This document shows positions 1,224 to 59,638 of a stretch of DNA of 64,000 bases, piece by piece (the stretch's first letter is position 1; every line of letters begins with the position of its first letter). The notes under the pieces were generated by a model. The model searched no databases. It had not been told where the DNA came from and saw only the letters and a list, made by a program, of their open reading frames with translations. The translations under genes and the position numbers were made by a program. Origin of the DNA: Polyangiales bacterium (GTDB lineage: Bacteria > Myxococcota_A > Polyangia > Polyangiales > Ga0077539); assembly GCA_044229975.1 (NCBI GenBank), contig JBGARZ010000024.1:64001-128000 (forward strand). The letters run 5' to 3'.

Positions 1224-1255
1224 GCCTGAACGTCTCGACGTCATGACGTCTGGAC
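1224..1255. repeat. Tandem 8-bp GTCYRGAC-like array (4 units)
   Basis: GCCTGAAC-GTCTCGAC-GTCATGAC-GTCTGGAC in the intergenic gap. Confidence 0.75.
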
Positions 1256-1326
1256 GTTGGCGGCTCACCGCCTCGACCCGCGAAGGCCGCTTCCATTAGG
1301 CTCCGACCGCGGAGACATCCGCTGCC

Positions 1327-3204
1327 ATGAGCCTCCTGCGCACCACCTGGTTTCTGTGCCTCGCGCTGTGGCTCGTCGGCGGAGGCTGTAGTCGCCCCGG
1401 AGCGAGGCCCACGGACGACGTCGGCAGCGTCCTCCCCGAGGACGTTCCGCTCAACCCCACCTTCGACATCCCCTCGTTCGACGTCGCCACCGTCCGTGAC
1501 ATCGGCGACGTCGGCGACGTCGTGCTCACCTGCGCGCTCAACCGCGACTGTCCCCGCGGGCAGCGCTGCCTCCAGGGGCGCTGCGTCGAGGACGTCTGCC
1601 TCGCCGCCGAGACCGCCTGCGGCAACGACCGCTGCGACATGCGCTGCGTGCCCATCCGCGACCTCTGCGCGGGCATCACCTGCGGGCCTGGCCAGACCTG
1701 CGTCAACGGCCGGTGCGCGGCCGGGTGCTTCCCCGCGCCGTGCGCCGGGGTGGTCTGCCCGGCGGGGCAGTTCTGCAACGAGGGCACCGGCGCCTGCGCG
1801 CGCATCACCCCGTGCCCGGGCTACTGCGACGACGGGTACGCCTGTCACATCACGTGCACCCCGCGCACGCCCTGCGACGCCGTGACGTGCGCGACCAACG
1901 AGGTGTGCTCCGACGGCCGCTGCGTGCCCAACCGCTGCGCGGGCGTGTCGTGCTCCCCCGGGTCGCTCTGCATCGACGGGAGCTGCGTCGACACCTGCGC
2001 CTGCGCCACGCCCTGCAACCGTTCGCCGCGCGACCGCTGCGTGGTCGGCCGCTGCACCTGCGACCGCACCTGCACCGCGACGACCCGCTGCGGCGCCGAC
2101 GACGGCTGCGGCGGGCGCTGCGTGGGCCCCTGCGAGAACCCCTTCGCCACCTGCGACCCGGTGACCTTCGGCTGCGATTGTGTCCCGCGCTGCGGCACCG
2201 ACCGATCGTGCGGCCAGGACGACGGCTGCGGCTCGCGCTGCACCGAGGGCTGCGCCGCGGGCGAGCGCTGCGACCCCGCCCTGGGGCGCTGCATCTGCAT
2301 CCAGCGGTGCCTGGGCCCCGAGGTGCTCGCGAGCACCTTCTGCGGGGTGCCGGTGCCCAACGTCTGCCCCGACGGACCCGTCTGCGGAACCGGCACCATG
2401 TGCCCCGCCGGGCAGGTCTGCGACCGCAACCTCATGCGCTGCGTGTGCTCGGGGCCCGACTGCCCGCCGCCGAGCGACGCCATGACGCCGCCCACCGGCG
2501 GCGGCGACGGCACCGCCATCTGCCCGATGGGCCTCTCGGCCTGCATGGGCAGTTGTTACAACACCCAGACCGACCGCGATCACTGCGGCGACTGCCGCGG
2601 CGACTGCCCCGACGACACCACCTGCGTGGCCGGCCAGTGCCGGTGCGCGGCGGGGCTCACCCTGTGCGGCGTCCGCTGCGTCAACACGCAGACCGAGAAC
2701 GGCAACTGCGGCACGTGCGGCACCGTCTGCGCCGCCGGCCTCTCCTGCCAGGCCGGGCGCTGCCAGTGCTCCACGGCGTGCGTCGTCGACCTCAACGTCG
2801 TGGCGTGCGGGACGGAGGTTCCGAGCCCGTGCCCGGGCGGGCCCTCGTGCGGGTACGGCCGGCTGTGCCCCGCGGGGCGGTCGTGCGACGTGCGGACGCG
2901 CACCTGCGTGTGCGTCCCCAACTGCCCTCCCGGCGGTCGCTGCGGCAACGCCGACGGCTGCGGCGGAACCTGCGTGGGCAACTGCAGCACCGGCGAGACG
3001 TGCACCCAGGACTCCACCGACCCGCGGCGCTTCTTCTGCTCCGCCGCGGGCTGCGCCGCGGGCTGCCGCTGCGACGAGGTCTGCTCCATGAACCGCTGCG
3101 TGCAGGTCACCTGCGCGGGCGGCGACCGGCCGTGCCCCTGCGTGTGCTGCCCCTTCGGCGAGATGTGCGTCGGCGGGAGCACCTGCGTCCCGATTCCGCC
3201 GTAG
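1327..3204 (+). CDS. Cysteine-rich repeat lipoprotein (myxobacterial disulfide/EGF-like repeats)
   Basis: Lipoprotein-like signal ending LVGGGC; extremely Cys-rich; repeated CGxxDGCGxxC (x3) and CxNTQT[DE]xx[HN]CGxC (x2). Confidence 0.85.
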   Translation: MSLLRTTWFLCLALWLVGGGCSRPGARPTDDVGSVLPEDVPLNPTFDIPSFDVATVRDIGDVGDVVLTCALNRDCPRGQRCLQGRCVEDVCLAAETACGNDRCDMRCVPIRDLCAGITCGPGQTCVNGRCAAGCFPAPCAGVVCPAGQFCNEGTGACARITPCPGYCDDGYACHITCTPRTPCDAVTCATNEVCSDGRCVPNRCAGVSCSPGSLCIDGSCVDTCACATPCNRSPRDRCVVGRCTCDRTCTATTRCGADDGCGGRCVGPCENPFATCDPVTFGCDCVPRCGTDRSCGQDDGCGSRCTEGCAAGERCDPALGRCICIQRCLGPEVLASTFCGVPVPNVCPDGPVCGTGTMCPAGQVCDRNLMRCVCSGPDCPPPSDAMTPPTGGGDGTAICPMGLSACMGSCYNTQTDRDHCGDCRGDCPDDTTCVAGQCRCAAGLTLCGVRCVNTQTENGNCGTCGTVCAAGLSCQAGRCQCSTACVVDLNVVACGTEVPSPCPGGPSCGYGRLCPAGRSCDVRTRTCVCVPNCPPGGRCGNADGCGGTCVGNCSTGETCTQDSTDPRRFFCSAAGCAAGCRCDEVCSMNRCVQVTCAGGDRPCPCVCCPFGEMCVGGSTCVPIPP

Positions 3205-3209
3205 CGGCG

Positions 3210-3776
3210 CTACGTCGCGTCGGCTTCGAGCGCGCCCGCGAGGGCGTGCAGCGCGAGGGCGTGCACCTCCTGGATGCGCGCCACCACGGACGAGGGCACC
3301 GAGATCACCGCGTCGGCGTGGGCCGCGAGGGGGGTGTTCTCGGCGCGGCCCGTGAGCGCCACGACGGCGCAGCCGAGCGAGCGGGCGGCGGCGGCGGCGG
3401 CGACCGCGTTGGGCGAGCGGCCGCTGGTGGAGAGCGCGACGAGCACGTCGCCGGGGCGGGCGAGGGCCTCGACCTGGCGCGCGAAGACCCGCGAGAAGTC
3501 CGAGTCGTTGGCGACGGCGGTGAGGGTGACGGTGTCTGCGGTGAGGGCGACGGCGGCGATGGGCGCGCGGTCGACGCGGTAGCGCCCAACGAGCTCGGCG
3601 GCGAAGTGCTGGGCCGAGGCGGCGCTGCCTCCGTTGCCGCAGACGAGCACCTTGGCGCCGGGGCGGGCGAGCGCGGCGCGCAGGAGACCAGAGGCGCGGT
3701 CGACCTCCGCGGGCAGCGTCGCGCGGCAGTCGTCGAGGACGCGCCGCAGCTCGTCGAGTTCATCCAGCAGGGACAT
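3210..3776 (-). CDS. gmhA: Phosphoheptose (D-sedoheptulose-7-phosphate) isomerase, SIS domain
   Basis: CGNGGSAASAQHFAAELVGRY, TAVAND, LSTSGRSPN and IQEVH motifs. Confidence 0.92.
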   Translation of the reverse strand: MSLLDELDELRRVLDDCRATLPAEVDRASGLLRAALARPGAKVLVCGNGGSAASAQHFAAELVGRYRVDRAPIAAVALTADTVTLTAVANDSDFSRVFARQVEALARPGDVLVALSTSGRSPNAVAAAAAARSLGCAVVALTGRAENTPLAAHADAVISVPSSVVARIQEVHALALHALAGALEADAT

Positions 3777-3832
3777 GGCGGTGGGCGATCATCGGCCACA
3801 ACACCGCCGGGACGAAGGCGGTCAATTCGGGC

Positions 3833-3974
3833 ATCTAGACGTCCAGACCTCTGGACGCCTGAACTACCGGGCAACGAAAACACCTTCATCCATCGGTGTT
3901 TTCGAGTGGCGATGGCGCGCCGGGGTGATTGAACGTCTAGACGGCTTGGACCCTGGAGGACTAGACGTCTCGCC
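3833..3974. promoter_or_regulatory. Two tandem 8-bp arrays upstream of parA (putative centromere/operator)
   Basis: ATCTAGAC-GTCCAGAC-CTCTGGAC-GCCTGAAC (3833-3864) and GATTGAAC-GTCTAGAC...GACTAGAC-GTCTCGCC (3927-3974), ending 2 nt before the parA GTG. Confidence 0.7.
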
Positions 3975-3976
3975 CT

Positions 3977-4666
3977 GTGATCGTTGCACTGACTGGACAG
4001 AAGGGCGGCGTCGGCAAGAGCACCCTGGCGATCTGCATCGCCGCAGAGCTGCTCGAACGACGCCACAAGGTGCTGCTCGTCGACGCCGACCCGCAGGGGA
4101 CCATCCGCACCTGGGGCGAGGTCGCGGCCGAGGCCGGGCGCGCGATGCCGACCATCGTCTCCATGGGGTCGACGATGCACCGGCCCGAGCAGCTGCCGAC
4201 GGTTCGGCAGGGCTACGACGACGTCATCATCGACTGCCCGCCGCGCCACGGGGACATCCAGCGCTCGGCCCTCATGGCGGCCGACCTGGCGCTGTTGCCG
4301 TGCGGTCCGTCGTCGGCCGACGCGTGGGCGCTCGCCGCGAGCATCGACCTCGTCAACGAGGCCCGCTCGCTGCGAACCGACCTCGAAGCCCGCATCGTCA
4401 TCACCCGCAGGCAGGTGCGAACCGCCCTCGGACGCAGCGCCCGCGAGGAGCTGGAGAAGAGCGGCGTCGAGCTGCTCAAGGCCGAGCTCGGGTACCGCGT
4501 GGCCTACGCCGAGTCGCTCGGCGCGGGGCAGGGCGTGACCACGTACGCCCCGAAGGACGCGGCGGCGCTGGAGATCCGCGCGCTCGTGGGCGAGCTGCTC
4601 GCGTGGGAGAAGCAGCGGGTCGCGGTCGAAGAGACGCCGAAGGCGAAGGTCGCGCGCAAGCGTTAG
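3977..4666 (+). CDS. parA: ParA family partition ATPase (short type Ib, ParF-like)
   Basis: Deviant Walker A QKGGVGKST, LLVDADPQG, VIIDCPP; 229 aa with no N-terminal HTH. Confidence 0.92.
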   Translation: MIVALTGQKGGVGKSTLAICIAAELLERRHKVLLVDADPQGTIRTWGEVAAEAGRAMPTIVSMGSTMHRPEQLPTVRQGYDDVIIDCPPRHGDIQRSALMAADLALLPCGPSSADAWALAASIDLVNEARSLRTDLEARIVITRRQVRTALGRSAREELEKSGVELLKAELGYRVAYAESLGAGQGVTTYAPKDAAALEIRALVGELLAWEKQRVAVEETPKAKVARKR

Positions 4667-6471
4667 TCGGGCTGCACCGTACGCAGCTCGCGGTCGCCGT
4701 GGAGGTCGCGGTAGCTGCGGCGCAGGCCGTAGCAGCGCTGGGCGAGCGCGCAACCGTCGCACGCCGACGGGTGGACGAACTCGCCCTGGTCGTAGTCCTC
4801 GGGGATCTCGCCGAGGAGCGCGGGCCGGGCCTCGGCAGGAACAAGGCACAGCGGGATGCCGCACATGGAGTCGAAGCCCCGCACGTCGACCTTGAGGGCG
4901 GACGCCTCGGCGAGCGCGACGAAGAGCTGCGGGAGCACGTCGGCGTAGCGCGGGACGAGGGCGGTGGGCACCACGTCGCTCGACGCGAACACGAAGGACA
5001 CGTTGAGAATCGCCCGCGGCCAGCGCGCGGCCACGAGGCGCACCATCGGGAGCAGCGCGTCGCGGTTGGCGGCCATGAGCACGAAGTTGATGACCAGCGT
5101 GACGTCCTCGTGGCGGTGGAGCTGGTCGAGGCCGAGGAGGGTTTTGACGAAGGTTCCGGGGGACTCGGTGAGGGCGTCGGAGAGCTCGGCGGTGTCGGCG
5201 TGCAGCGAGACCATCACCCACCCAACCCCCGCGGCGACGAGCGCGTCGGTGAGCGCCGGGTCGGCGAGGCGCACGGCGTTGGTCTGGAGCGCCACCACGT
5301 GGGGGCCGTGGGCGCGGGCGAGGGCGACGTACTCGACGAGGCGCGGGTTGAGCGTGGGCTCGCCGCCGGTGAGGCTCACGCGGCGACCGGCGCGGGCGGC
5401 CGTGACGATGGCGTCGCGCACGGCGGCGTCGGTGGCGGGCGGCAGGTGCGTCGACACGAAGCAGAACGCGCACGACTGGTTGCAGTGGAAGTTCACGCGG
5501 ACGAGGGTCTCGTCGACGACCTCGCCGGTGACCTGGTCGGTGTAGCGGCTGGGCTGCGCGAGCTCGCGGCGCACCTGGTCTTCGACCGTGTCGATGAGCG
5601 AGAGCCGACGGCGCACGCGGTCTTCCGTGATGGGGCGCAGCGCGACGCCCGGGTGGCGCGCGAGGTAGGCCGTGGGGACGCCCGGGCAACGATCGCGCAG
5701 CGAGCACCGACTGCAGGGCGGAGGGTGCGCGCGGTCGGCGCGGGGCGCAGCGCCGGGCGTGAGCGCATAGAGGCTCGACACGGCCGCGGGCTGCGGGAAG
5801 AAGCAGGGCGGCGGGCCGCTGTCGGGCGACAGCTTGAACGACAGCCCCGCGCGGCGGGCCGAGGCGTGGGCGGCCGAGAGGGCGGCGCACGCCTCCTCGT
5901 AGGTCACGAGCTGCGAGGGGTCGGGTGACTCCGTGGGGACGCGCACGCGCAGACCGCGCAGCGACGGGCCCAGCGCGTCGACGAGCTGCTCGGGGAGCGC
6001 GCCGAGGGAGTTCAGGGTCGCGCGGATGACCACGGCGGAGACCTCCACCGCCACGCCCGCGGCGAGCAGCGCGCGGATGCCGGCGAGGGTGCGTGCGAAG
6101 CCGCCCGGGTCGCGGGTGATGGCGTCGAGGGCGTCGCCCCAGGCGGTGAGGTTGACCCGCGCGAGGGTGAGCCCGGCGACGTGGAGGGCGCGGGCGCGGT
6201 CGGCGTCGAGGAGGGTGGCGTTGGTCTCCAGCGTGACCTCGGTCGCACCACCTCGACGGGCCTCGGCGATGAGGCCGGGGAGGTCGTTGCGCATCCCGGG
6301 CTCGCCGCCGGAGATCACCACCTCGCGTACCGTCTGCGCGGCGGCGTCACGCAAGCGGGCGAGCACGGCGCCGGTGTGGATCTCCGCGCGCGATTCGGCC
6401 ACCACGCGAACGTTGCAGTAGGTGCAGTTCTGGTTGCAGGTGCGGTGCGTGGTGATGAGCTGTGAGCGCAC
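4663..6471 (-). CDS. Twin-domain radical SAM protein (two HxsC-like domains)
   Basis: CNQNCTYC and CNQSCAFC, two GGEP motifs, two Cx2Cx5C tails; GTG start at 6471 preceded by GGAGG. Confidence 0.9.
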   Translation of the reverse strand: MRSQLITTHRTCNQNCTYCNVRVVAESRAEIHTGAVLARLRDAAAQTVREVVISGGEPGMRNDLPGLIAEARRGGATEVTLETNATLLDADRARALHVAGLTLARVNLTAWGDALDAITRDPGGFARTLAGIRALLAAGVAVEVSAVVIRATLNSLGALPEQLVDALGPSLRGLRVRVPTESPDPSQLVTYEEACAALSAAHASARRAGLSFKLSPDSGPPPCFFPQPAAVSSLYALTPGAAPRADRAHPPPCSRCSLRDRCPGVPTAYLARHPGVALRPITEDRVRRRLSLIDTVEDQVRRELAQPSRYTDQVTGEVVDETLVRVNFHCNQSCAFCFVSTHLPPATDAAVRDAIVTAARAGRRVSLTGGEPTLNPRLVEYVALARAHGPHVVALQTNAVRLADPALTDALVAAGVGWVMVSLHADTAELSDALTESPGTFVKTLLGLDQLHRHEDVTLVINFVLMAANRDALLPMVRLVAARWPRAILNVSFVFASSDVVPTALVPRYADVLPQLFVALAEASALKVDVRGFDSMCGIPLCLVPAEARPALLGEIPEDYDQGEFVHPSACDGCALAQRCYGLRRSYRDLHGDRELRTVQPD

Positions 6472-6499
6472 CGGGCGTTCCTCCGGAAGGGGGGAGCGG

Positions 6500-30497: not shown

Positions 30498-30538
30498 GCC
30501 TAGACGTTCAGACGCCTGAACGTCCTGGACGTCCGAGG
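30498..30538. repeat. Tandem 8-bp GTCYRGAC-like array (about 5 units)
   Basis: GCCTAGAC-GTTCAGAC-GCCTGAAC-GTCCTGGAC-GTCCGAGG between convergent genes. Confidence 0.75.
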
Positions 30539-30575: not shown

Positions 30576-33500
30576 TCACCCGATCGGCCGCAGCTCGTCG
30601 CTCCCGAAGAGCTCGAAGTACATCGCCCACGTCTTCGGGCACCGCTCCCTCACGCTGCATCCGCGGCACGGCGGCGGCTCGGGTCTCTGCGTCGCCCGCA
30701 CGGCATCGAGCGCGTCGTGCGTCAGGTGCAGGTCGTCCACCCGGTGCCGCGCCCAGTCCTCGGTCGCGTCGGGACTCCCGTGCAGCTCCGTCGGCAGCGC
30801 GCACAGCGGAAACGCCTCCGTGCTCACCGTCACGCCCTGCTGCGCCGCGACCTTCGCCGCCTGCCGCACCGCCAACGCCGCATGCGCCAGCCGCGGGACC
30901 GCGTCGGTCACCGCCCGCCCCGGCAGCTCCACCGGCCGCGGGAAGTTGAACTGCACCCGCGTCGCCCCGAGGTGCTTCGCGAAGGCCACCGTCGTCGCGA
31001 GCCCCCGTAGATTCCCCCGCAGCACCGGAACCGTCACCAGCAACTGCCGCCCCGACGCGGCCAGCGCCTTGATGGCCGTCGCCGTCGCGCGAAACGCCCC
31101 CGCCACCCCCGACAGCCGATCGTGCGTCGCCTCGTCGGCCGCCAGGAGCTGCACCTCGAAGGCGTCGACCCCCGCGCGCAGCAGCTCGTCCCGCAGCCCC
31201 ACCGCCGCGAGCGCTTTGCCGTCGGTCTGGAGCTGCACGAAGCGGTAGCCCATGCGCCGCGCGCGACCCACGAGCGCCGCCAGGTCGCGCCGCAGCGTCG
31301 CCTCGCCCCGCAGGATCACCAGCTCGTCGCACCCCGCCTCGCGCCCCTCGGCGAGCGAGCGCAGCGCCTCATCCGACGACCGATCGGGCTGCTCGCGTTG
31401 ATCGCGCAGGGTGCAGTGCCCGCAGTCGAGGTCGCAGCGCGTGGTCAGCCGCAACGACAGCCGACGCCCACCGGGCAACGCCGCGAGTACGGCATCGCTC
31501 GCGATCGGCGCGAGCGCGGGGCCGGGCGGTCGCTCGACGAGGAAGTCACCGATGGCGAGGAAGTCGGCGCCCAGGCCCACGAAGCAGTCGAGCGCGTCAG
31601 CAGGCGTGCAGACGATGGGCTCCCCCCGACGATTGAACGACGTGTCGAGCACCATCGGAACGCCCGTGAGCCGCTCGAAGGCCGCGATCATCGCGTGGTA
31701 GCGCGGCTGCTCGGTGGGGTGGACGACCTGCGGGCGGGTGGTTCCGTCGACGTGGACGACGGCGGGGACGCGCGCGCGTTGCGACTCGATGACGGGCAGC
31801 GTGAAGAGCATGAAGCGCGAGTCGAAGGCCCGCTCCAGCCACTCGCCCTCGCGACCCGCCAGCACCGACGGACCAAACGGCCGCCACGGCTCGCGCTGCT
31901 TCATCGCGTTGACCCGCGCGTGCATCGCCGCGTTGCGCGGATCAGCCACGATGGACCGCGCCCCGAGCGCCCGCGGGCCGAACTCCATCGGCCCCTGAAA
32001 CCAGCACGCCACCTGTCCGTCTGCGAGCCGCCGCGCCGTCTCTGTGGCCACGTCGTCGACGCGCTTCCACCGCAGCCGCGAGCGCTTGAGCACCCGCTCG
32101 ATGGACCCGTCGTCGAAGTCGGGACCCAGCCCCGCGTGGGTGAGCGCCGGGCTGCGATCGGTCTCTCCCAGGTGCATCGCCCACGCTTCGAGCGCCGCGC
32201 CGAAGGCCGTCCCCGCGTCGTTGGCCCCCGGCTGCACGAACATCGCCCCCGGCGCGAACTCCCGGCGCAGGCGTTCGTTCATGGTGCAGTTGAGCGCGAC
32301 GCCGCCCGCGAGGCAGAGCGCGTCGAGCGGGCCGTCTCCCACCGCGCGTCGCAGCAGCGCGACCACGGTGTCTTCGAGCGCCTTCTGCACGCTCGCCGCG
32401 AGGTCCTGGTGGCGCCGCTCGATGGGTCCATCGGGAGCGCGCGCGTAGGCCGCGAAGGTGTCGTTGAAGCCCTCCTCGTGCGCGACGAGCGTGCCGTCGT
32501 CCCGCATCGCGAGGTGCCGCGAGATGTCGACGTTGGGCGTCCCGAAGGAGGCCAGGGCCATCACGCTGCCCTGCCCGTGGGAGCCGAAGCCCAGCAGCGA
32601 GGTGACCCCCGAGTACACGCCGCCGATGGAGCGGTCGGTGAGCGCCAGCACGCTGTCGACCAGTGCGAGAACACCGTCCGTCGCCCGCCACACCGCCGCG
32701 CACTCGCGGTCGCCGCGGCCGTCGACGGTGAGCACCCAGGCGTCCAGACGTCCAGACGCTCTGAGGGCTGAAGCCGCGTGGGCCCGGTGATGCGGGAGGT
32801 AGAGCACCCTGCCCGCGCGCACCGCCGGGATGTCCGCCTTCGCATCGAGGAAGGGGATCTTCCCCACGTAGCGCCCGTGCAGTCCGTTGACGGCGATGCA
32901 CTCGACGTCGTCGAGGGTGATGCCTTCGCGCTCCAGCAGCGCGCGGATGGGCCCGCGGCAGAGGGTCTCTTCGAGGCAGAGGGTCGGGTCGACGGCCGCC
33001 GTCACGCCGGGCCGACCGGGCGGGTGCCAGCCCGCGTGACGGACGCGGTTGATGCGTTCGAGCTCGACGGCGCCGACCACCGCGCCGTCCTTCAGCAACG
33101 CGGCGGCGTGCTCCTGCTGGGTCATCACGGCGAGGCCCAGCACATACCTTGACCCCACCACCGGCCCCCGCTTCGGCAGCAGATAGCTCGGCGGAAACGG
33201 CGCCGGAACGCTCGGCCCCGGCAACCCCGCGAGCCGCGACAACCACCCTGGTCGATGCGCGAGTGCGTCGCTGCGGGTGTTGCCATCGGGCGCGTGCGTC
33301 GGCCGGATGGCGTCGCTCGGACACGCCTCCACGCAGTCCAGGCAGCGGGTGCAGTCGTCCTCCGCGCCCTCTCTCAGCCCGACGATCACGCCCTCGGTCC
33401 CCGCCTTCAACACCCCCTCCGGGCAGACCTCCGAGCACGCCCCGCAGCCCGTGCACCGCGACGCGTCCACCACCATCGGCAACCGCGGCCGATGCGCGGG

Positions 33501-37067: not shown

Positions 37068-37107
37068 CCGTAGACGCCAGAGCGTCCTGGAGTCTAGACG
37101 TCTGGAC
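37068..37107. promoter_or_regulatory. Tandem 8-bp array abutting the start codon of the RHH gene
   Basis: CCGTAGAC-GCCAGAGC-GTCCTGGA-GTCTAGAC-GTCTGGAC directly followed by ATG. Confidence 0.7.
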
Positions 37108-37452
37108 ATGGCCACCAAGAAGCCCCCGCTCAGCCTGCGCCGACCGAGCGAGGCCATCGATCCCCTCCAGGCCGAGCGCTTCGTCCGCGGCTCGGCCGTC
37201 GAGGCGCCCGCTCCGACGCCAAAGCGTCCAGACGTCCAGACGCCCGCTCCGACGCCGCGCGTGGTGGAGGCCGTCTCGAAGTCGCTGGTCTACCGCAAGC
37301 GCACCGACGACCACCGCCGGCGAATGACCATCTACCTGTCCGAAGACCTCTCGCGCCGCCTGCGCCTCTACGCCGCCGAGCACGACCAGGACTACAGCGT
37401 GATCCTCGCCGAGTCGCTCGAAGCCCTGCTCGACCGCAAGAACGTCCGCTAG
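37108..37452 (+). CDS. Ribbon-helix-helix DNA-binding protein (ParG-like centromere-binding candidate)
   Basis: Flexible N-terminus with AERFV, then RRMTIYLSEDLSRRLRLYAAEHDQDYSVILAESL, a strand-helix-helix pattern. Confidence 0.75.
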   Translation: MATKKPPLSLRRPSEAIDPLQAERFVRGSAVEAPAPTPKRPDVQTPAPTPRVVEAVSKSLVYRKRTDDHRRRMTIYLSEDLSRRLRLYAAEHDQDYSVILAESLEALLDRKNVR

Positions 37453-40407: not shown

Positions 40408-40434
40408 CGAGGGTCTCGCCCGCAGTCTACACGC

Positions 40435-45588: not shown

Positions 45589-45613
45589 CCTCCAAACCTA
45601 CTGAAGGGCTCCG

Positions 45614-47707: not shown

Positions 47708-47715
47708 GCCCAGAG

Positions 47716-48855
47716 TCACAACAGCGCGTGCAGATCCTCGCGCGTCGTCACCGGAATCCCCCGCTTCCCGAACCCCTCCTTCAGCCGCTCGAAGGTCGCC
47801 AGCTCCCACTCCTCCGTCGCCGCTTCGGGCCGCCCGACGCTCTCGTACAGCGTCGTCGAACGCCCCTTCTCGTACATCGGCGCGACGCGCACCGCGTGCA
47901 CCCACGGCGCGACCTTCTCCACCAGCTTGTCCGGGTCCATCGGCAGCATCGGCTGCACCACCACGAAGGTCCGCAGCCCCGCTTCGTGCATCGCCTTGAG
48001 CGCCTCCAGCCGCGCCTCGATGCCCTCCGTCCTCGGCTCGAACACCGCCCGCACCCCATCGTCGTCCGTCGGAACGCTCATCCCCACCAGCGCCCGCGGA
48101 AACTCCCGCAGCCGCTCCAGGTCATCGAGCACCGACGTCGACCTCGTCAAAATCATCGGAACAAACCCCGTCCCCTTCATCGCGTCGAGGCACCCGCGCG
48201 TCACGCGGTAGCGCCGCTCGATGGGCTGGTACGGGTCCGTCACGATGGGGCTCATCCGCACCACGCCCGGCGGCCGCTTCGCCACTTCCTTCGCGAGCAC
48301 CGTCGGCAGGTCGGTCTTCACGTCGACCCAGCGCCCCCACGGCAGCACCGGCTCGCCCTCCAGCGCGCGGCTCGCATCGGCCCGATGCATCGCGTAGCAG
48401 TACGGGCACGCCAGGAGGCACCCGACATACGGGTTCAGGTAATAGACACCCGGCACCTCCGGCACCAGCGCGTGGTCGGCCGTCAGCTCGCGCACCCGCA
48501 CCCGCTGCGCCTCTTCCGCCGTCACCGCCACCGGCGCGGGCAGCTCGTGCTCGTGCGCCTTCACCACGCGCACCACCTCGTCGATCACCGCGCGCTCGTC
48601 GGCGTCGAGGTCGCGCCGCAGCCGATCGACCACCGAGTAGTAGACGTTGAGCCGCGCCGTGCGGGCGTAACAACCCCGCGATGCATCGAGCGTGTCGAGC
48701 TCCACCACGAGCCGCCCCTTCGGCCCGCGGAAGCCCAGCGCGAGCCCTTGCTCCACTTCCCTCGAAGTGAGCCGCCACCCCGCTGGCAGCACGAGCTCGG
48801 TCAGCCAGCGAGCGACCGTCGCGGAGAGCGTCGAGTGCCCCGCGCGAACGATCAT
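47716..48855 (-). CDS. Radical SAM protein, spore-photoproduct-lyase-like fold, with N-terminal accessory domain
   Basis: LNPYVGCLLACPYCYA, TDPYQPIE, ILTRS; ATG overlaps the upstream TGA. Confidence 0.88.
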   Translation of the reverse strand: MIVRAGHSTLSATVARWLTELVLPAGWRLTSREVEQGLALGFRGPKGRLVVELDTLDASRGCYARTARLNVYYSVVDRLRRDLDADERAVIDEVVRVVKAHEHELPAPVAVTAEEAQRVRVRELTADHALVPEVPGVYYLNPYVGCLLACPYCYAMHRADASRALEGEPVLPWGRWVDVKTDLPTVLAKEVAKRPPGVVRMSPIVTDPYQPIERRYRVTRGCLDAMKGTGFVPMILTRSTSVLDDLERLREFPRALVGMSVPTDDDGVRAVFEPRTEGIEARLEALKAMHEAGLRTFVVVQPMLPMDPDKLVEKVAPWVHAVRVAPMYEKGRSTTLYESVGRPEAATEEWELATFERLKEGFGKRGIPVTTREDLHALL

Positions 48856-51206
48856 CAGCCGAGCACGTTGAGCCGACGACGCGAGTCGACCTCCACCAGG
48901 GGCCGGTCGAGGTCTTCCGGGTGCACGAGCCACGGCGGCTCGGGCACATCATCGAGCTCGTAGAACCCACCGCAGAACACCGCGTGCGGACACGTCGCGC
49001 AGACGGGCTTCTTCACGCGGCGCGCGGCGAGGTAGTCGCCGAGGTTCACGTCCTCGTTGTTCACGAAGATCATGTGCCGCGAGAGCTTCAGCAGGTCGCC
49101 CATCATGAAGCGCTCGTACCCGGGCATGAAGCAGAACGGCAGGTTGATCACCTGGAACTTCATCCGATCGCCCCAGCGATCCATCACCGCCATCGCCGCG
49201 TTGGCGGCCGTCTGGGTGTCGGGCGAGATCCACTTCGTCGCGCGCCCGAAGGGCGTCAGGAACTGGATGTTGAGCCACCGCAGCCCAAGGTCCCACGCGA
49301 GCTGGGTGACCGCTTCGAGGTGCGCGGTGTTGCTCTTGGTGAGGGTGATGTTCATGCCGAGCTCGACGCCCGGCGGCGCGTGCTTCACGCAGTAGCGGAT
49401 CCCCTGCACGGTCTGCTCGAAGGCTTCGGCGACACCGACCTGCTGGGCGTGCGACTGGGCGTCGTGGCCGTGCACGCTGAAGAGCAGCGTGGTGAGCCCC
49501 GAGCGCACGAGCGAGCGCGCGAACTTCTCGTAGACGCAGAGGCGCCCGTTGGTGGTGACGTTGACGCGCTCGTAGCCGATGCTGCGCGAGTACTGCACCA
49601 GCGGGATGAGCTCGGGGTTGAGCGTCGGCTCGCCGCCGTCGAAGTCGACCATGGTGACGCCCTGCGCGCGGTACCGGTCGAGGTGCTCGCGCTGCCGCGT
49701 CGGGTGCCCATCGACCTGCGTGCGCGTGCCCACCGCGCAGAACGTGCAGCGGTTGTTGCACACGTAGGTGACGTTCATGATGACCTTCTGCGGGCCTTCC
49801 ACGGCGCGCATGCGCTCCTCGAAGGTCCAGCGGAAGCGGGCGAGCTCCTCGGGCGTGACGCTCATCCCCGGCTGGCTCGGCGTCATCTGGAAGCGCGGCC
49901 CCCAGTCGTCCACCACGGGCAGCGATCGCCCGCGCGCGAGGTCGGTGCCCGGCAGCGGCGTCGCGTACTGCACCGCGGGCCAGGCGCCGTGGTCTTCGTA
50001 GAGTTCCATCGCGAAGCGCAGGGTCTCGTTGATCTCCTCGGCGCTCTCCCCGGGCAGCCCGATGATGTAGTGGACCATCAACGGCACGCCCGCGGCCTTG
50101 GCGCTCTGCGCGGCGCGCACGATGGCCTTGAGGTCGAGCCGCTTCTTCACCACCTCGGTGACGACGCGCTGCGAGCCGCTCTCGGCGCTCACGCTCACGG
50201 TGTTCACGAGGCCGCGCATGCGCGCGAAGTGCTCGGGTTCGAGGTAGTCGGCGCGCATCCCGTTGGGAACGTCGAAGCGCACCCCGAGCGCCGTCACGCC
50301 ATCGAGAAAGCCATCCCAGTGCCGCTCGTTGACGTTGATGAGCTCGTCGAGCACCTCCAGCCGCGACGCCCGGTGGGTCTTCACCATCGTGTCGAGGTAG
50401 GCCCGCAACCGCGCCGCCGAGTAGCGCCGCTGGGTCTTCGGCTCACCCAGCTCGCGCCCCGGGTTGGAGCTGCAATGAACGCACGTAAACGGGCACCCGC
50501 GCGAGGTCACCATCGGCAGCGTTCGGCCGTCGATGGGGAAGGCCCACGCGCCGCGCCCGAGGTCGCCCACCATGCTGGCGCAGAAGCGGTCGTGCGCGTT
50601 GAGGTCGACGAGATCCCACGCGGGGAAGGGGAGGGCGTCGAGCGACGACGGGCTCTCTCCGCGGTGCGCTCCGCGGATGGACTCACCGCGACCGAGCGCC
50701 GCGAGCAGCGCGGGCACGGTGACCTCAGCCTCGTACTTCACCCACGCGTCGGCCTCGGGGTAGCTCGCGAGCACGGCCGCGCCGTCGGCTTCGACGTAGT
50801 GCTGGCCCGACTGGTAGGCGTCCGCGAGCACCAGCGCCGCCGTCGGCAGCATCGCGCGCAGCCCCGTGAGCAGGGCACCGAGCACCTCGTCGCGACCCGG
50901 TGGCCGATGAAACGGCGTGTACGCCACGACCACCGCCGCGGGCTTCTCTCCCGCGGCGATGGCGGCCCGCACCGTCGCGAGCAGCGTCTCCACGGGGACG
51001 CCCAGCAGGGCCCGGTCGTCCGCGCGCCAGCGCAGCGCGGCGCCCGGCGTGGCGAAGGCGTCGACGAGGGTGACGGGGTGCCCGAGCTCGCGCAGCACGG
51101 CCGCAAGCTGCACGGCGCCGAGGTCGCTGAAGTACGGGTAGTCGATGAAGTCCCGCGCCACGCTCACGGGCGGATGCAGCACCAGCGTGGCGACCGGGTG
51201 GCTCAT
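48855..51206 (-). CDS. Fusion: B12-binding radical SAM plus HxsC-like radical SAM
   Basis: VLHPP...LGAVQLAA, TSRGCPFTCVHC, IGLPGE, PLPGT; then CNNRCTFC, GGEPT, NLPFC, CATCPHAVFC. Confidence 0.9.
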   Translation of the reverse strand: MSHPVATLVLHPPVSVARDFIDYPYFSDLGAVQLAAVLRELGHPVTLVDAFATPGAALRWRADDRALLGVPVETLLATVRAAIAAGEKPAAVVVAYTPFHRPPGRDEVLGALLTGLRAMLPTAALVLADAYQSGQHYVEADGAAVLASYPEADAWVKYEAEVTVPALLAALGRGESIRGAHRGESPSSLDALPFPAWDLVDLNAHDRFCASMVGDLGRGAWAFPIDGRTLPMVTSRGCPFTCVHCSSNPGRELGEPKTQRRYSAARLRAYLDTMVKTHRASRLEVLDELINVNERHWDGFLDGVTALGVRFDVPNGMRADYLEPEHFARMRGLVNTVSVSAESGSQRVVTEVVKKRLDLKAIVRAAQSAKAAGVPLMVHYIIGLPGESAEEINETLRFAMELYEDHGAWPAVQYATPLPGTDLARGRSLPVVDDWGPRFQMTPSQPGMSVTPEELARFRWTFEERMRAVEGPQKVIMNVTYVCNNRCTFCAVGTRTQVDGHPTRQREHLDRYRAQGVTMVDFDGGEPTLNPELIPLVQYSRSIGYERVNVTTNGRLCVYEKFARSLVRSGLTTLLFSVHGHDAQSHAQQVGVAEAFEQTVQGIRYCVKHAPPGVELGMNITLTKSNTAHLEAVTQLAWDLGLRWLNIQFLTPFGRATKWISPDTQTAANAAMAVMDRWGDRMKFQVINLPFCFMPGYERFMMGDLLKLSRHMIFVNNEDVNLGDYLAARRVKKPVCATCPHAVFCGGFYELDDVPEPPWLVHPEDLDRPLVEVDSRRRLNVLG

Positions 51207-51336: not shown

Positions 51337-51597
51337 ATGTTCGGCATGGGCGCATCGGAACTGATGATCATCCTGGTGATCATCCTGCTGTTGTTCGGGG
51401 CCTCGAAGCTCCCTGAGCTCGGACGCAGCCTCGGCTCGGGGCTCAGCAACTTCAAGAAGGGGCTGAAGGACGGCGACGAGGGCCCGACCCTGCCCGCACC
51501 GCCCGCCCGTGTCGCGCGCGTCGAAGAGCCGCCCAAGGCAGCAGTGCCGGCCGAGACCCCGCCGGCGACGCCGACCTCCAACACCAGTGATTCCTGA
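51337..51597 (+). CDS. tatA: Twin-arginine translocase TatA/TatE subunit
   Basis: MFGMGASELMIILVIILLLFGASKLPELGRSLGSGLSNFKKG. Confidence 0.95.
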   Translation: MFGMGASELMIILVIILLLFGASKLPELGRSLGSGLSNFKKGLKDGDEGPTLPAPPARVARVEEPPKAAVPAETPPATPTSNTSDS

Positions 51598-54302: not shown

Positions 54303-55307
54303 ATGCGGCCGACGACCCCGACGATGCTCCCACCCCGCGCCACGCTCTCCCTGCTCACCGACTGCGACAACCGCTGCGTGTTCTGCGCGCCCGACGGGCT
54401 CCCCGCGGCCGCCCCGCGCGAGCTCGACGCCGTCGTCGCCGACCTCGACGCCCTCCGTGCACGGCACACCGCGATCACCTTCACGGGCGGCGAACCCACG
54501 CTCCACCCCGCGCTGCCCGCCATCGTCGCCGCGGCGCGCGCTCGCGGCTTCACCCACGTCGGGCTCCAGTCCAACGGCCGTCGCCTGCGCGAGCACCACT
54601 ACGCCAACGCCTTGCGCGACGCGGGCCTCACCGACGTCCACCTCTCGCTGCACGGCCTCGGATCAACCATCCACGACCACCACACGGGCGTCGAAGGCAG
54701 CTTCGCCGAAGCCTTCGACGGGCTCGCCGCCGCCCGCCACGCGGGCCTCACCATCGTCGTGACCACGGTGCTCACGCGCTCCAACGCGCGCTCCCTCACC
54801 GCGCTCGCCCCGTGGCTCGCCGCGCAGTCCGTCGCCGCGTGGTCCGTCGCCGTGCCCCGCACCGCGGGCCGACTCTTCGCCAGCTTCGACCGGGTGTTTC
54901 CGCGGCTGGCGATGGCGATGCCGCACGCGCTGCACGCGCTCTCGGCGGCGCAGCAGAAGGGCGTCGTCCCCTTCCTGCGCGGAGCGCCGCTGTGCCTGCT
55001 CGGCCCCTTCGCGGCGCGCAGCCTCCCTGTCGCGACTGGAGCCTTCGCCCCGCAACCCTGCGGCACCTGCCCGGCCCGCGCGTGGTGCCCCGGCGTCGAC
55101 GCCCGCTACCTCAAGCGCTTCGGCGGCGACGAGCTCTCCGCAGCGCGCGCCCCCACCTCTCCCGCAAAGCCCTTCACGGCTCGCGAAGAGTCGCTCGCGG
55201 TGATGTTCGTGGGGGAGGGGCCCGGCGGTCCGGAGCCGGCCGGGGTAGAGTCGGCGCCGACGGGCGCTACGCGGGTGGCGTTGCCGATCGTGCGCGAGGG
55301 CGCGTAG
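54303..55307 (+). CDS. HxsC-like radical SAM protein
   Basis: CDNRCVFC, TGGEPT, QSNG, APLC, CGTCPARAWC. Confidence 0.92.
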   Translation: MRPTTPTMLPPRATLSLLTDCDNRCVFCAPDGLPAAAPRELDAVVADLDALRARHTAITFTGGEPTLHPALPAIVAAARARGFTHVGLQSNGRRLREHHYANALRDAGLTDVHLSLHGLGSTIHDHHTGVEGSFAEAFDGLAAARHAGLTIVVTTVLTRSNARSLTALAPWLAAQSVAAWSVAVPRTAGRLFASFDRVFPRLAMAMPHALHALSAAQQKGVVPFLRGAPLCLLGPFAARSLPVATGAFAPQPCGTCPARAWCPGVDARYLKRFGGDELSAARAPTSPAKPFTAREESLAVMFVGEGPGGPEPAGVESAPTGATRVALPIVREGA

Positions 55308-55318
55308 ACCGAGGACGC

Positions 55319-56551
55319 ATGGCGAACATCGGGTACATCCAGGTCGTCCGGCACTGCAATCACTTCTGCGGGTTCTGCTCCAACCCGACGACGCCGTACG
55401 TGCACACCTTCGAGACGATGAAGGTGCTCGTCGACGACCTCGTCGACCGCAACTACTTCGGGGTGATCCTGACGGGCGGCGAGCCGTCGCTTCATCCCGA
55501 GCTGCCGCGCATCGCGCGCTACGCCTCCGACCGCGGGCTGCACGTGCGCATGATCACCAACGGGTGGCGCATGGCCGACCCGGCCTTCGCGAAGGAGATG
55601 GCCGAGGCGGGGCTGAAGCTCGTGCACGTGTCGGTCTACTCGGTGCGGCCCGACGTCGAGGAGAAGCTGCGCGGCACGCCCGGCACCGTGGAGCGGGCCT
55701 TCGCGGCGATCGAAAACGCCAACCGCTACGGCATCGACGTCAACATCAACTGCGTCATCAACAAGCTCAACGCCGACCACCTCGACGAAAACATCCGCCA
55801 CTGGATCACGCACCACCCGTACATCCGGCACTTCGTCTGGAACAACCTCGACCCCTCCATGGGTCGCGCCGAGGTCAACCAGGCCGAGTACACCCCGCGG
55901 CTCGCCGACTTCGAGGTGTCGCTCCACCGCGCGCTGAAGCTCCTCCACCAGAGCGGCCGCACCTTCCGCGTGGAGAAGGTCCCGCTCTGCTACATGGCGG
56001 AGTTTGCGTGGGCGAGCACCGAGACCCGCAAGATCGTGAAGGGCGAGGAGCGCATCGTTCACTTCCTCGACGCCAAGCAGACGGTCCGGCAGACCGACTG
56101 GGAGCACATCTACTCGGACGGCTGCTCGGTCTGCTCGCTACGCACCATCTGCGGGGGTCTCTTCGACCGCGGCAACGCCTACGACCCCGGCGAGCTGTAC
56201 CCGGTGTTCATCGACCGCGACGCCGTCGTCGAGAAGATCATCCACGACCCGCGCGACCCCAGCTACGAGTTCCGCTCCATGGACGCGTGGCGGGCGGACT
56301 TCGAGCGCCGCGTCGCCGAGGCCCGCGCCGCTGGCAATCGCCGCCCATTGCCGATGCACGGCGACCAGCCGCCCGAGCACATGACCCCGCCCAACGCCCC
56401 CGCCGTGGGGCAGATCACCGAACAGGGGCTCCGACTCTTCGAATCCAAACGCAATTCCGAAGGAAAGAAGGCCGCTCAGATCGGTATCTCCCTCGAACGG
56501 ATGGAAGTGCAGATCCCGGTCAATCCCCCATTGACCAAGACCGACCCATGA
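55319..56551 (+). CDS. HxsC-like radical SAM protein
   Basis: CNHFCGFC, TGGEPS, ITNG, VPLC, CSVCSLRTICGG; GAGGA RBS. Confidence 0.93.
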   Translation: MANIGYIQVVRHCNHFCGFCSNPTTPYVHTFETMKVLVDDLVDRNYFGVILTGGEPSLHPELPRIARYASDRGLHVRMITNGWRMADPAFAKEMAEAGLKLVHVSVYSVRPDVEEKLRGTPGTVERAFAAIENANRYGIDVNINCVINKLNADHLDENIRHWITHHPYIRHFVWNNLDPSMGRAEVNQAEYTPRLADFEVSLHRALKLLHQSGRTFRVEKVPLCYMAEFAWASTETRKIVKGEERIVHFLDAKQTVRQTDWEHIYSDGCSVCSLRTICGGLFDRGNAYDPGELYPVFIDRDAVVEKIIHDPRDPSYEFRSMDAWRADFERRVAEARAAGNRRPLPMHGDQPPEHMTPPNAPAVGQITEQGLRLFESKRNSEGKKAAQIGISLERMEVQIPVNPPLTKTDP

Positions 56552-56874
56552 AAGCACTGTTGTGGCTCGCTCCTTGCTGAATTCCACAGACAGCACCGCA
56601 ATGCACGCCGGAACAACATCACCTGAAAACCCCTTCTGTCTGCGGTTTCGCGCCGACAGAGGCTTCATCGTGGGTGCTCCGGCCTCGTCCGATCTCAGGC
56701 TCGTCCCACCCGGCGATGCCTGGAAAACTTTGCGTACCATTGCCGTGGCTGCGGGGTTCACTGCTTCAGGTGGGTGGTCGGAGCGTGAAAACTTTGCGAG
56801 GATTCCTCGGTCCTCGAACGGTTCATCTGGCGTGAGCCGCGCGGAATGAGGCACCTTCCCCAGCGGAGCGTCGA

Positions 56875-57609
56875 ATGTTGAAGTGGAACCGGCGCCAGTT
56901 CCTGAGTGGAGTGTTGACCGCTGCCAGCGCGGGTGCGGCGACGTCTGCCCAGGCTCTGCCCGTCTCCTCGTCGCTGCTCTCCGGAGCACCCGGCACCTCC
57001 CCACTCCCTGCACCCGTCTCGCCCACGGGTCACGAAGCTCCTGCCACCGCAACAAGCTGTGCGAGCAACCACGTCGCGCACGACCTCCAGCAGATGCTCC
57101 CCGAGGGGCAGCGCTTCGGTCGCTGGCGCGTGGTGTCGGTGCTCCCGGTCAAGCTCGGCGCCGTGCCCGTGGTGCTGGAGTCTCGCCGCGGCGAGCGCTT
57201 CCAGGTCGACGTCCTGCGACGCGACCGCAGCACGCGCGCCCGTCGCGGCCTCGCTGAGACGCGCGAGTACTCGCTGTTCCTGCTCAACCGCGGCTTGGGT
57301 GATACCCCGACCCAGGAAGACCACGGCCTGGCGGTGCTCTGGCTCGCGGCCCTGCTCCGCCCGCGCGAGCGCACCGCGGGCACCGTCGCGCTGCTCACCC
57401 AGCGCGAGCGCACCCAGCGCTTCCCGCGCGGCAAGTTCAACGCCCTCACCTCCGCCGTCGCCGAAGAGCAGACGCGCTTCGAGGCGCCCGCCTCCGAGGC
57501 GAGCTGGCAGTTCGCCGAAGGGGCCGCGACGCCTCCGCGCATCGAGGCCGAAGAGCCCGCTCCCGCGCTCCCCGGCTCGCCCGAGTACGACGCCCTCCTC
57601 CTCGGCTGA
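56875..57609 (+). CDS. Tat-signal hypothetical protein
   Basis: N-terminal NRRQFL twin-arginine motif, hydrophobic stretch, AQA cleavage site. Confidence 0.8.
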   Translation: MLKWNRRQFLSGVLTAASAGAATSAQALPVSSSLLSGAPGTSPLPAPVSPTGHEAPATATSCASNHVAHDLQQMLPEGQRFGRWRVVSVLPVKLGAVPVVLESRRGERFQVDVLRRDRSTRARRGLAETREYSLFLLNRGLGDTPTQEDHGLAVLWLAALLRPRERTAGTVALLTQRERTQRFPRGKFNALTSAVAEEQTRFEAPASEASWQFAEGAATPPRIEAEEPAPALPGSPEYDALLLG

Positions 57610-57760
57610 CCGGCGCTCCGCCGCAGCCCCACTCCCGTACGCAACCGAGCCCACGCCGAGGCGTCAGCCCGACGCGCATCCGCGGTCGATCAGTCACCTC
57701 TACGGCGCGCTGTCGACGTGGTCGGACGCGCGCCACGCTAACGCGTCGGCGTGGTCGCCT

Positions 57761-59638
57761 TCACTCGGCGTCGGCGAGCACCGGCTGCATCAGCTCGTAG
57801 CCGTGCGCGCGGATGTAGTTGATGTGCATGCCGTCGCAGCGCGACGCGTGGACGCACGGCTTGCAGCGGAGCGACTTCGCCTTGTAGCGGTCGACGATGT
57901 ACCGCTGGATGTAGCGGAAGATCTCGAGCTGCCCGTCGGGGGTCATCATCGACGCGTCGAGGGTCTTCACCGGCTCGCGCGGCGTACGCCCGATCACGCA
58001 CGCCGGAACCCCCTCCACCGGGACATCACCCGCAAAGCGCTCGAAGAACGCCCGCAGGTCGACGTCGTACGCCTGGGCCTCGCTCATGCGCTCGTAGGTC
58101 GGCTGGAAGAGCGCCAGCCGTGACGGCACCGGCCCCGCTGCGGCGAGCGAGAGCAGCCACGGCTCGTTGGCCTTCGTGAGCGCGACGGCCACCTCGAAGT
58201 CACCCGGCATCGCCAGCAGCGCCTCGGCCTGCGCAGCCTTCGACGCGATCGCCCGCGTCACCCGCCACGGGACGTCCGAGCGTCCAGACGTCCAGACGTC
58301 TAGACCACTGAAGTCCGCGAGCTCGAGCTCCACCTCGGTGAGCGTCGGGTGCAGCGCGATCTCGGCGAGCGCGGCCGTCACGTCCGGCGCCACCACCCAG
58401 AGCTTGCGCGCCTGCGCCTCGACGGCGAGCGCCCCGGGCGCCACCGTCGCGATCGCGGTCGACGCCTTGGCGCTCTGCCCCAGCACCGGCAGCCGGAGCT
58501 TGGCCCGCGACGAGTCCACGGTGACGTCCTGGCCCTGCGCCTCGACCACCGCGTCGCCCTCCGGAAGCGCCGTGAGGCCGCCTTCCGCGAGCTGCGCCTC
58601 GATGGCCCGCGCCCGCTTGCTGCTGGCCGGATCGCCACCCCAGATGGGCCCCTGCTTCTTCTCCCAGGCGACGTCGACGCGGAGCCGCGCGAAGTCGCGC
58701 TGGATCACGTTGTCGCGCACGCCGTAGAGGGTGTCGCAGACGTTCTGGAGGTAGCAGAGCTTGCAGCGCGAGGGCTCGCGGCAGTCGAGGTCGACGCCCT
58801 CGGTGAGCAGCCGGTGGAACTCCTCCTTCCGCCCCTTGGCCTCGTCGTTGAGCTTGTACGGGTCCTGGATGAGCGACTCGTAGCCTTCGAGGTGCTGCAC
58901 CGGGAAGCGGTTGAGCCAGATGTGCACGTCGGGCCGCTTGGAGAACGCGAAGGCTTCGAGCAGGTACGGGCGCATCTCCTCGAGGTCGTAGAAGAGGATG
59001 TCCTTCCCTTCCTTGAACGCGTTGCCGAAGGGGATCACGTGCAGCAGGTCGTACTCGCGCACGCCCATCGCGATGAACTTCTCAAGGATGGTCTTGAGGT
59101 GCTTCACGTTGCCACGGTTGATCACCACGTCGATGTTCACGATGGGACGGCCGTCTTCGAGCGCGTACTGGAGCCCCTGCACCTCCTGCTCGAACGCGCC
59201 CTTCGCGCCCACGAGCGCGTCGTGGATGCGCGCGTTGGGGCCGTGGATGGAGAACGTGATCTCGTCGAGACCCGCGTCGAGGCAGCGCTGCAAGAAGGCC
59301 TTGTAGGAGAACGCGCGGCCGTTGGTGACGGTCTGGATCTTCCGGTACTTCGCGGCCTTCCCGAGGCGGATGAAGTCCACGTAGTTGGGGTGCATCGTGG
59401 GCTCGCCGCCGGAGAGGATGAGCCGCTGCGCGCCCTTCTTCGCCCCGTCGAGGATCTGCTGCTTCACCTCGTCGCGGTCACGCATCTGCCCGTCGTGCGT
59501 GAGCGTGTCGAGGCAGAAGACGCAGTGGTTGTTGCAGTCGAAGGTGAGGCGCACCCAGTTGCGCTTCTCGTGCGCGGCGTCTTCGTGTTCGAGCAGCTTC
59601 TCGTCGAGGCCCGCGTCTGGGTTCTGCACCGTCAACAT
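57761..59638 (-). CDS. HxsC-like radical SAM protein with degenerate second domain
   Basis: CNNHCVFC, SGGEPT, VTNG, CKLCYLQNVC; C-terminal VPAC and CKPCVHASRC. Confidence 0.92.
   Translation of the reverse strand: MLTVQNPDAGLDEKLLEHEDAAHEKRNWVRLTFDCNNHCVFCLDTLTHDGQMRDRDEVKQQILDGAKKGAQRLILSGGEPTMHPNYVDFIRLGKAAKYRKIQTVTNGRAFSYKAFLQRCLDAGLDEITFSIHGPNARIHDALVGAKGAFEQEVQGLQYALEDGRPIVNIDVVINRGNVKHLKTILEKFIAMGVREYDLLHVIPFGNAFKEGKDILFYDLEEMRPYLLEAFAFSKRPDVHIWLNRFPVQHLEGYESLIQDPYKLNDEAKGRKEEFHRLLTEGVDLDCREPSRCKLCYLQNVCDTLYGVRDNVIQRDFARLRVDVAWEKKQGPIWGGDPASSKRARAIEAQLAEGGLTALPEGDAVVEAQGQDVTVDSSRAKLRLPVLGQSAKASTAIATVAPGALAVEAQARKLWVVAPDVTAALAEIALHPTLTEVELELADFSGLDVWTSGRSDVPWRVTRAIASKAAQAEALLAMPGDFEVAVALTKANEPWLLSLAAAGPVPSRLALFQPTYERMSEAQAYDVDLRAFFERFAGDVPVEGVPACVIGRTPREPVKTLDASMMTPDGQLEIFRYIQRYIVDRYKAKSLRCKPCVHASRCDGMHINYIRAHGYELMQPVLADAE
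58274..58305. repeat. Intragenic tandem 8-bp array
   Basis: GTCCGAGC-GTCCAGAC-GTCCAGAC-GTCTAGAC. Confidence 0.8.

Follow-up and report, generated by a model that had tools for sequence, protein, structure and literature searches.

What is the function of the short palindromic repeats that are scattered over a large contig of a Polyangiales bacterium? The stretch studied here (the window) comprises 64,000 bp, positions 64,001 to 128,000 of contig JBGARZ010000024.1 (C30; 150 kb) in assembly GCA_044229975.1 (G000; 10.03 Mb, 39 contigs, 93% complete). It holds eight tandem arrays of an octamer, some of them directly upstream of a partition gene, parA, and of a gene for a small ribbon-helix-helix (RHH) protein, referred to below as parB. 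A sequence-only reading had taken these arrays for the distributed centromere of a type Ib partition system, spread over a large replicon or island. Our analysis supports this: the arrays are probably the binding sites of the RHH protein ParB (37108-37452). Together they would form a dispersed centromere and also provide the operators of both par genes, on the model of the myxobacterial plasmid pMF1. This reading draws on the NF041546 match of ParA, the homology of the RHH protein to pMF1 ParB, and the recovery of the pMF1 iterons by a matrix built for the C30 arrays. The pMF1 precedent, the Met-box phase of the unit and the plasmid backbone beyond the window were absent from the sequence-only reading.

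Arrays and partition genes

All eight array stretches are present and 8-bp periodic, but only four contain exact (GTCYRGAC)n tandems, the unit first proposed (32742-32757, 37092-37107, 37226-37241 and 58282-58305; coordinates without prefix are window positions). Those at 1224, 3833, 3927 and 30498 are degenerate, with one or no exact unit each. The four exact arrays are the only ones in the genome, where a 5th-order Markov model predicts 0.008 exact dimers (5e-5 in the window); exact single octamers number 13 in the window, against 1.31 expected. To avoid circularity, the matrix used to score degenerate arrays was trained on relatives only (three related genomes with 13 arrays and 84 units; G000 excluded) and symmetrised. 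It identified 10 arrays on C30 at 26-47 bits, two of them beyond the window (Table 1), and no array of ≥20 bits elsewhere in G000 (9,874,795 bases). A count against a Markov background, which the sequence-only reading had proposed as a check, is therefore not that of background, and a chance or microsatellite origin was rejected by the matrix scan together with the Markov expectation. The ten arrays cover 68 kb of the contig; seven are intergenic and three lie within genes.

Table 1. Features discussed in the text. Positions without prefix refer to the window, those with the prefix C30 to the whole contig (window = C30:64001-128000); other prefixes name contigs of related genomes.
Feature	Position	Strand	Description
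Array	1216..1255	.	35 bits; overlaps stop of upstream gene, 71 bp before Cys-rich protein gene
Array	3825..3864	.	39 bits; divergent region, upstream of gmhA-like SIS gene (by 48 bp) and of parA (by 112 bp)
Array	3927..3974	.	26 bits; ends 2 bp before parA start
parA	3977..4666	+	short Walker-type (type Ib) partition ATPase, 229 aa; NF041546 202 bits, cut-off 180
Array	30498..30529	.	degenerate, 29 bits; between two convergent genes; gene-order break relative to metagenome locus L045
Array	32734..32773	.	26 bits; inside gene for carbamoyltransferase/radical SAM fusion (30576-34262, minus); L045 has it too
Array	37076..37107	.	28 bits; abuts parB start codon
parB-like RHH gene	37108..37452	+	114 aa; basic motif conserved at N-terminus, linker variable, RHH at C-terminus, ribbon R-R-M-T-I-Y-L-S
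Array	37210..37241	.	28 bits; inside parB, codes for part of linker
Array	58274..58305	.	42 bits; inside HxsC-like radical SAM gene (57761-59638, minus), rare codons retained
Array	C30:54353-54432	.	beyond window
Array	C30:55955-56010	.	beyond window
Rep-like gene	C30:134301-135995		564 aa, C-terminal helix-turn-helix (HTH); beside DnaB-like helicase
Iterons	C30:134014-134274		six copies of ~23-bp repeat, plus AT-rich stretch, after rep-like gene
Tyrosine recombinase	C30:53239-54366		octamer array at 3' end; region C30:53164-54366 (L003:17164-18366)
Giant secreted Cys-repeat protein gene	C30:137863-150355 and 1-4746		>5,700 codons, spans assembly break
HxsA-like precursor candidate	60642-61418	minus	64 His-x-Ser repeats, five in described HxsA
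HxsB	61509-63002		over cut-off
HxsD-like	62999-63214
HxsD	63211-63744
Second par module (L179)	G021:C34:72126-72166, 78268-78299, 79485-79579
Second par module (L184)	G432:C339:3701-5431

The octamer is better read in the other phase, as RGACGTCY. Among 59 distinct arrays of the replicon family the best-scoring segment starts with the RGAC half in 44 and ends with the GTCY half in 41, with a nominal p of 2e-6 that is overstated, the arrays being related and not independent; of 348 units, 276 have retained the CG in the middle of RGAC|GTCY, and the centre of GTCY|RGAC is variable. The correlation of half-site quality carried no phase information (p 0.72 and 0.23). A search for the exact triple pattern in 185,579 genomes gave 31 loci, with an RHH gene of the family within 3 kb in one and ParA in none. 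Five are MetJ operators and only two lie in genes of the C30 replicon family, so the motif alone is not diagnostic of a par system.

ParA has its Walker A motif at residues 7-15 and no N-terminal HTH, which fits type Ib ParABS, and carries a basic C-terminal tail like that of pMF1 ParA. Its best matches among 72,556 plasmid records are the ParA proteins of pMF1 (53.4%) and pSa001 (51.2%), both of them described plasmids of myxobacteria. The RHH protein has weak Pfam RHH matches, below cut-off; the monomer model places helices at residues 79-92 and 96-110, with a low-confidence middle and N-terminal half, and Foldseek ranks RHH proteins first (CopG, SvtR, CdbA and omega), with no match at E≤0.001. 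It would thus be a small centromere-binding protein with a flexible N-terminus and a C-terminal RHH fold, as is typical of type Ib systems, judging from sequence and model. It has 68 close relatives, and at E≤0.001 its family comprises 385 clusters. A profile of this family shows homology to pMF1 ParB (probability 97.7%, E 1.4e-12) and to the gene that follows parA on pSa001 (probability 97.6%), but none that is detectable to MetJ (probability 0.4%). By tblastn neither the RHH gene nor the putative replication gene rep (see below) has a match in the plasmid collection, and among viral contigs a single distant RHH locus turned up, which has no more than a 20-bit dimer.

A further type Ib feature is that short tandem repeats precede the par genes, and as the sequence-only reading had noted they lie directly upstream of both genes here, two arrays before parA and one before parB. 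The arrays at 3927..3974 and 37076..37107 are likely the operators of parA and parB, respectively, and an array upstream of parA is also found in the related genomes G002, G004, G006 and G007. The two genes do not form the single operon of type Ib systems, being 33 kb apart in G000. In G004, G006 and G007 they lie side by side. A split is seen in G000, in the metagenome loci L044 and L045 and, two times, in G002; where they are split, each has its own upstream array. A misassembly behind the split is unlikely, given that contigs from public runs bridge the SIS gene, the arrays and parA (X3, 3410-4042) as well as parA and the next gene (X2, 4514-4713; at low depth and possibly from the source sample), and that in L044 and L045, too, an array but no parA precedes parB. 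A split is also known from the delta/omega system of pSM19035, an accepted type Ib member, where the par genes are transcribed separately, each with an array of RHH sites that serves as operator and centromere (passages of PMC5016525). That system differs in its heptad repeats, its Gram-positive host and its promoter-tied arrays, whereas C30 has octamers, several of them in coding sequence.

Much of this resembles parCAB of pMF1 from Myxococcus fulvus 124B02. Its ParB binds six iterons, ItA-ItF, with the motif AGATGTCT, as demonstrated by electrophoretic mobility shift assay and footprinting; these iterons are imperfect palindromes with an 8-bp period and almost the sequence of the C30 arrays, are dispersed along the plasmid and lie partly inside genes, and ParB represses the par operon (Sun et al. 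2011; passages of PMC3235114). The C30-family matrix, which was never trained on pMF1, found exactly six arrays on that plasmid (29-72 bits), at the positions of ItA-ItF, so that one matrix finds both the C30 arrays and the AGAYGTCT-type iterons. The differences are that pMF1 has its par genes in one operon and that arrays of C30 lie also inside parB. Furthermore, the function of the pMF1 system requires ParC (passages of PMC7843461), whereas tblastn at E≤1 detected no ParC homologue in G000 and an array, not a gene, precedes parA. Plasmid pSa001 of Sandaracinus MSr10575 (209.7 kb; PMC8048970) is similar in its ParA, in the RHH family gene that follows it and in 8-bp-period repeats upstream of parA, but has another repeat sequence, the ribbon R-S-T-T-V-F and adjacent par genes. 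No array of the C30 kind was found in the 40.6 kb of it that were examined, and its par system is not described in passages of PMC8048970.

By analogy with pMF1, MetJ, omega and ParG, a ParB dimer would use its beta-ribbon to recognise a single RGACGTCY unit, and dimers would polymerise along the 3-10 tandem units of an array. The flexible N-terminal tail may then stimulate nucleoid-bound ParA, by which plasmid copies would be moved apart. With the arrays in front of parA and parB occupied, both genes would be repressed and could so stay co-regulated despite the 33 kb of cargo between them. An RHH protein acting on dispersed tandem repeats is a known mechanism, described for pMF1 in 2011, and split genes are known from pSM19035. 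New are the split, ParC-less variant with in-gene arrays and a Met-box unit, and the large plasmid family that the arrays mark. We found no description of the plasmid family, the in-gene arrays or the Met-box likeness in the literature searched, which included few subscription papers.

A linker peptide of the kind encoded by the array inside parB is present in 69 of 152 representatives of the RHH family (2.45 in shuffles), 66 of them among the 136 with a basic-Thr-Tyr ribbon and 3 among the 16 others. The array at 58274 is found in all six same-genus orthologues of the HxsC-like gene and in none of 20 more distant homologues (one of which, L157, is from an unpublished genome). The leucine codon CTA, which makes up 0.5% of the Leu codons of C30, is retained in this array in all six orthologues. 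Of the codons ending in A or T at invariant residues, five orthologues have 0/10 in common outside the array and 2/4 inside it, which are small numbers. The retention of the array and of its rare codons in orthologues points to selection on the DNA.

Replicon and relatives

C30 is most likely a plasmid, although the contig is not closed. Candidates for all plasmid modules (initiator, iteron origin, partition and dimer resolution) are present. The rep-like gene and the repeats next to it are a candidate initiator and iteron origin, judged by position and iterons; the gene has no Pfam Rep match, no plasmid match and no homology to pMF1.14, a further difference from pMF1 along with the size of C30. 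This candidate replicon module (C30:134014-137314; L005:8014-11314), of an uncharacterised type, which also holds a 26-bp palindrome, has homologues in many genomes of the same family and no match in the plasmid collection. The tyrosine recombinase, which we take to be Cre-like from its motifs, is preceded by a lox-like site (13-bp inverted repeat, 6-bp spacer) that is kept in six orthologues.

The contig ends tell the same story. Both lie in the gene for a giant secreted protein with MopE-type metal-binding and disintegrin-like repeats, and of the 78 contig termini in the assembly only these two match that gene, on one strand. The terminal 150 bp of C30 have no 25-mer in common with any other contig. 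Contig C13 of G004 (137 kb) is syntenic throughout and broken in the giant gene at both ends, whereas in contig C34 of G021 (87,612 bp) the region is continuous. Both ends of the latter contig fall within the same single-copy gene (residues 254-429 at the start, 7-249 at the end), which makes it a permuted circle. Rep is 79-89% identical in G002, G004 and G006, on the contig that carries parA and the RHH gene. It is because of the replicon modules, the giant gene at both ends, the permuted circle and this linkage that we regard C30 as most likely a plasmid. Names of relatives and best matches mark the host as a myxobacterium.

Comparison with relatives showed that the arrays follow the RHH gene and neither Rep nor the cargo. 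Arrays at ≥22 bits are present at the par genes in all 14 metagenome loci with close RHH homologues. Exact RGACGTCY dimers occur in 6 of the 31 genomes of the family, the five with a close RHH homologue and one that is 64% complete. G002:C25 has the backbone and eight arrays and no radical S-adenosylmethionine (SAM) motif in the 108 of its 111 kb that were fetched. G021:C34 shares a 75% identical Rep, DnaB and many cargo orthologues with C30, but its par pair differs (ParA 35%, ParB-like partner not homologous) and no array of the C30 kind occurs in its 87,612 bp. These two contigs rule out that the arrays are tied to the radical SAM cargo.

G021:C34 has a repeat of its own, in four clusters: before parA, after the partner gene, within the HxsC-like gene and in an intergenic region. 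At the frequency seen in G000 (69 pairs), about 0.6 such clusters would be expected. Both G021 and G015 carry their own par repeat within the HxsC-like linker. The pair of G021 belongs to a second, unclassified par module (ParA and a partner without Pfam match) with its own repeat, seen at loci L179 and L184; in G432 this repeat is also found inside the partner gene. A different arrangement was seen at L183 (G432:C649:26000-30000), where parA, an RHH gene, an integrase, a Rep homologue and five arrays lie amid flagellar genes, possibly an integrated member of the C30 plasmid family. Contig C29 of G000 itself (152,187 bp) has a Rep homologue (64%) at about 39700-50200, with its own ParA and small partner and no octamer arrays. 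It is probably a second large replicon in the same genome, with heavy-metal efflux cargo as judged by eye.

Alternative roles of the arrays

The RHH protein could act as a plasmid-wide repressor of the par genes, the resolvase and some cargo, with one or two of the arrays, or none, being centromeric. We consider this possible but doubtful. Four of the seven intergenic arrays of C30 lie just upstream of a gene start, the positions before the SIS gene and the Cys-rich protein gene are kept in G004, and every parS of pSM19035 overlaps a promoter, with a single site as the main centromere (passages of PMC5016525). The role of an operator is not obvious for the three arrays within genes and the three at 3' ends or convergent junctions, and a pMF1 fragment with only two of the six sites gave incomplete stabilisation (passages of PMC3235114). 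It is unlikely, in our judgement, that the arrays, besides binding ParB, are recombination junctions for the swapping of cargo, with or without the presumed Cre-like recombinase. All five informative array junctions coincide with gene-order breaks between G000 and G004, compared to 24 of 62 without an array (junctions between two private genes were left out, one C30 array junction among them), and in the reverse comparison the figures are 8/8 and 23/61. Excluding par-linked arrays leaves 3/3 (p 0.07) and 6/6 (p 0.005). An array adjoins the recombinase gene in all six close orthologues (at the 3' end in five) and in none of nine distant ones at ≥22 bits. Most breaks are nevertheless without an array, the array junctions are clustered in one region and not independent, and the recombinase has a lox-like site of its own. 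The association comes from few, related plasmids, and arrays attached to mobile backbone genes explain it equally well.

Read as RGACGTCY, the unit is a tandem 8-bp palindromic Met box, AGACGTCT, the consensus bound by MetJ (passages of PMC4239095), and positions 2 and 4 of the ribbon hold a basic residue and Thr as in MetJ (position rule from passages of PMC3413123). The arrays might then be operators of a SAM-responsive MetJ-type repressor that controls SAM-consuming radical SAM cargo, of which C30 has 28 radical SAM-type cysteine motifs. The Escherichia coli metJ-metB operator scores 29.8 bits with our matrix, and the five exact triple arrays upstream of methionine genes are all in genomes with MetJ. 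This explanation is largely refuted and strikes us as extremely improbable. PF01340 was not found in G000 or in any of five related hosts, and no array exists off C30, hence none at the methionine genes of the host. Moreover, arrays persist without the cargo in G002:C25 and are absent with it, under another par pair, in G021:C34, and the two protein families are not detectably homologous. The arrays would mark a centromere and not a metabolic operator, and the Met-box likeness is best taken as a convergence of two RHH ribbons, as far as sequences tell. The five loci with MetJ and tandem Met boxes before methionine genes (L100, L103, L106, L107 and L121) belong to gammaproteobacterial assemblies, four of them labelled as Lysobacterales/Xanthomonadales-type, a group listed as lacking MetJ, from four genomes, in passages of PMC4239095.

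Quite improbable, too, is that C30 is part of a chromosomal island or chromid, with arrays that are relics or that help after excision. Its GC content is that of the genome (72%), the contig is not closed, HxsC-like homologues occur on chromosome-size contigs elsewhere in the order, and G432:C649 has its RHH/ParA pair with arrays amid flagellar genes, next to an integrase. Against this stand the unique termini of C30 and their position in one giant gene, which is continuous in the permuted circle of G021 and broken likewise in G004.

Several observations weigh against a dispersed, ParB-bound centromere on a plasmid. The RHH fold comes from a monomer model with a predicted local distance difference test score (pLDDT) of 67.7 and no called beta-strand, with Foldseek rows at E>0.1, and pMF1 ParB is a distant homologue (33% over 80 columns). 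The C30 unit is centred on CG (AGACGTCY), unlike the AGATGTCT of pMF1. A promoter scan found no sigma-70-like promoter at the parA arrays. Among distant ParA-linked homologue loci in a search of 401 genomes of the phylum only one of eight has arrays, and L059, L060, L063 and L064 have an R-x-T-x-Y-like ribbon but no array at ≥22 bits, so that arrays cannot be predicted from the ribbon. No parA or RHH gene was found in G008 (93% complete), which does have Rep and the in-gene array. Finally, C30 is not a closed contig.

A wider proposal joins these threads. In it, the arrays would mark fixed positions on myxobacterial plasmids of 88-150 kb that form an undescribed family, one spot of a radical SAM gene would be written in the code of the resident ParB, and half of the 385-cluster RHH family would embed its own centromere in coding sequence. 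Protein-coated arrays would be hot spots for the exchange of His-Xaa-Ser/radical SAM cargo, and ParB would have converged on the operator code of MetJ, in which case the two proteins should cross-bind. Taken as a whole this is speculative and rather doubtful.

Cargo and significance

As cargo the plasmid has a His-Xaa-Ser/radical SAM cluster of giant size, at 54324-63744 in the window and over the remainder of C30, with many HxsC-like and B12 radical SAM genes that score below cut-off. HXS was recently described as an antiphage system (PMC13128918). The His-x-Ser repeats of the HxsA-like precursor candidate explain a 9/27-bp tandem repeat at 60652-61224. Genes for ADP-heptose synthesis (gmhA-like, hldE-like, hldD and heptosyltransferase-like) are located at 3210-3776 and C30:34110-37866, a tatA copy at 51337-51597, and a candidate tRNA-Tyr was called at C30:29208-29290.

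Only two or three myxobacterial plasmids have been described, according to passages of PMC11705834, and vectors for these bacteria are scarce. The arrays mark a partition module and a replicon family (Rep, iterons, helicase and resolvase) that could be tested for use as a large-capacity vector. The pMF1 system is extended, from a ParB reported to lack homologues in databases to a family of at least 385 clusters. In-gene arrays and the swapping of repeats with the par pair provide a natural series in which to ask how an RHH ribbon chooses its site, and whether many weak sites may act as one centromere.

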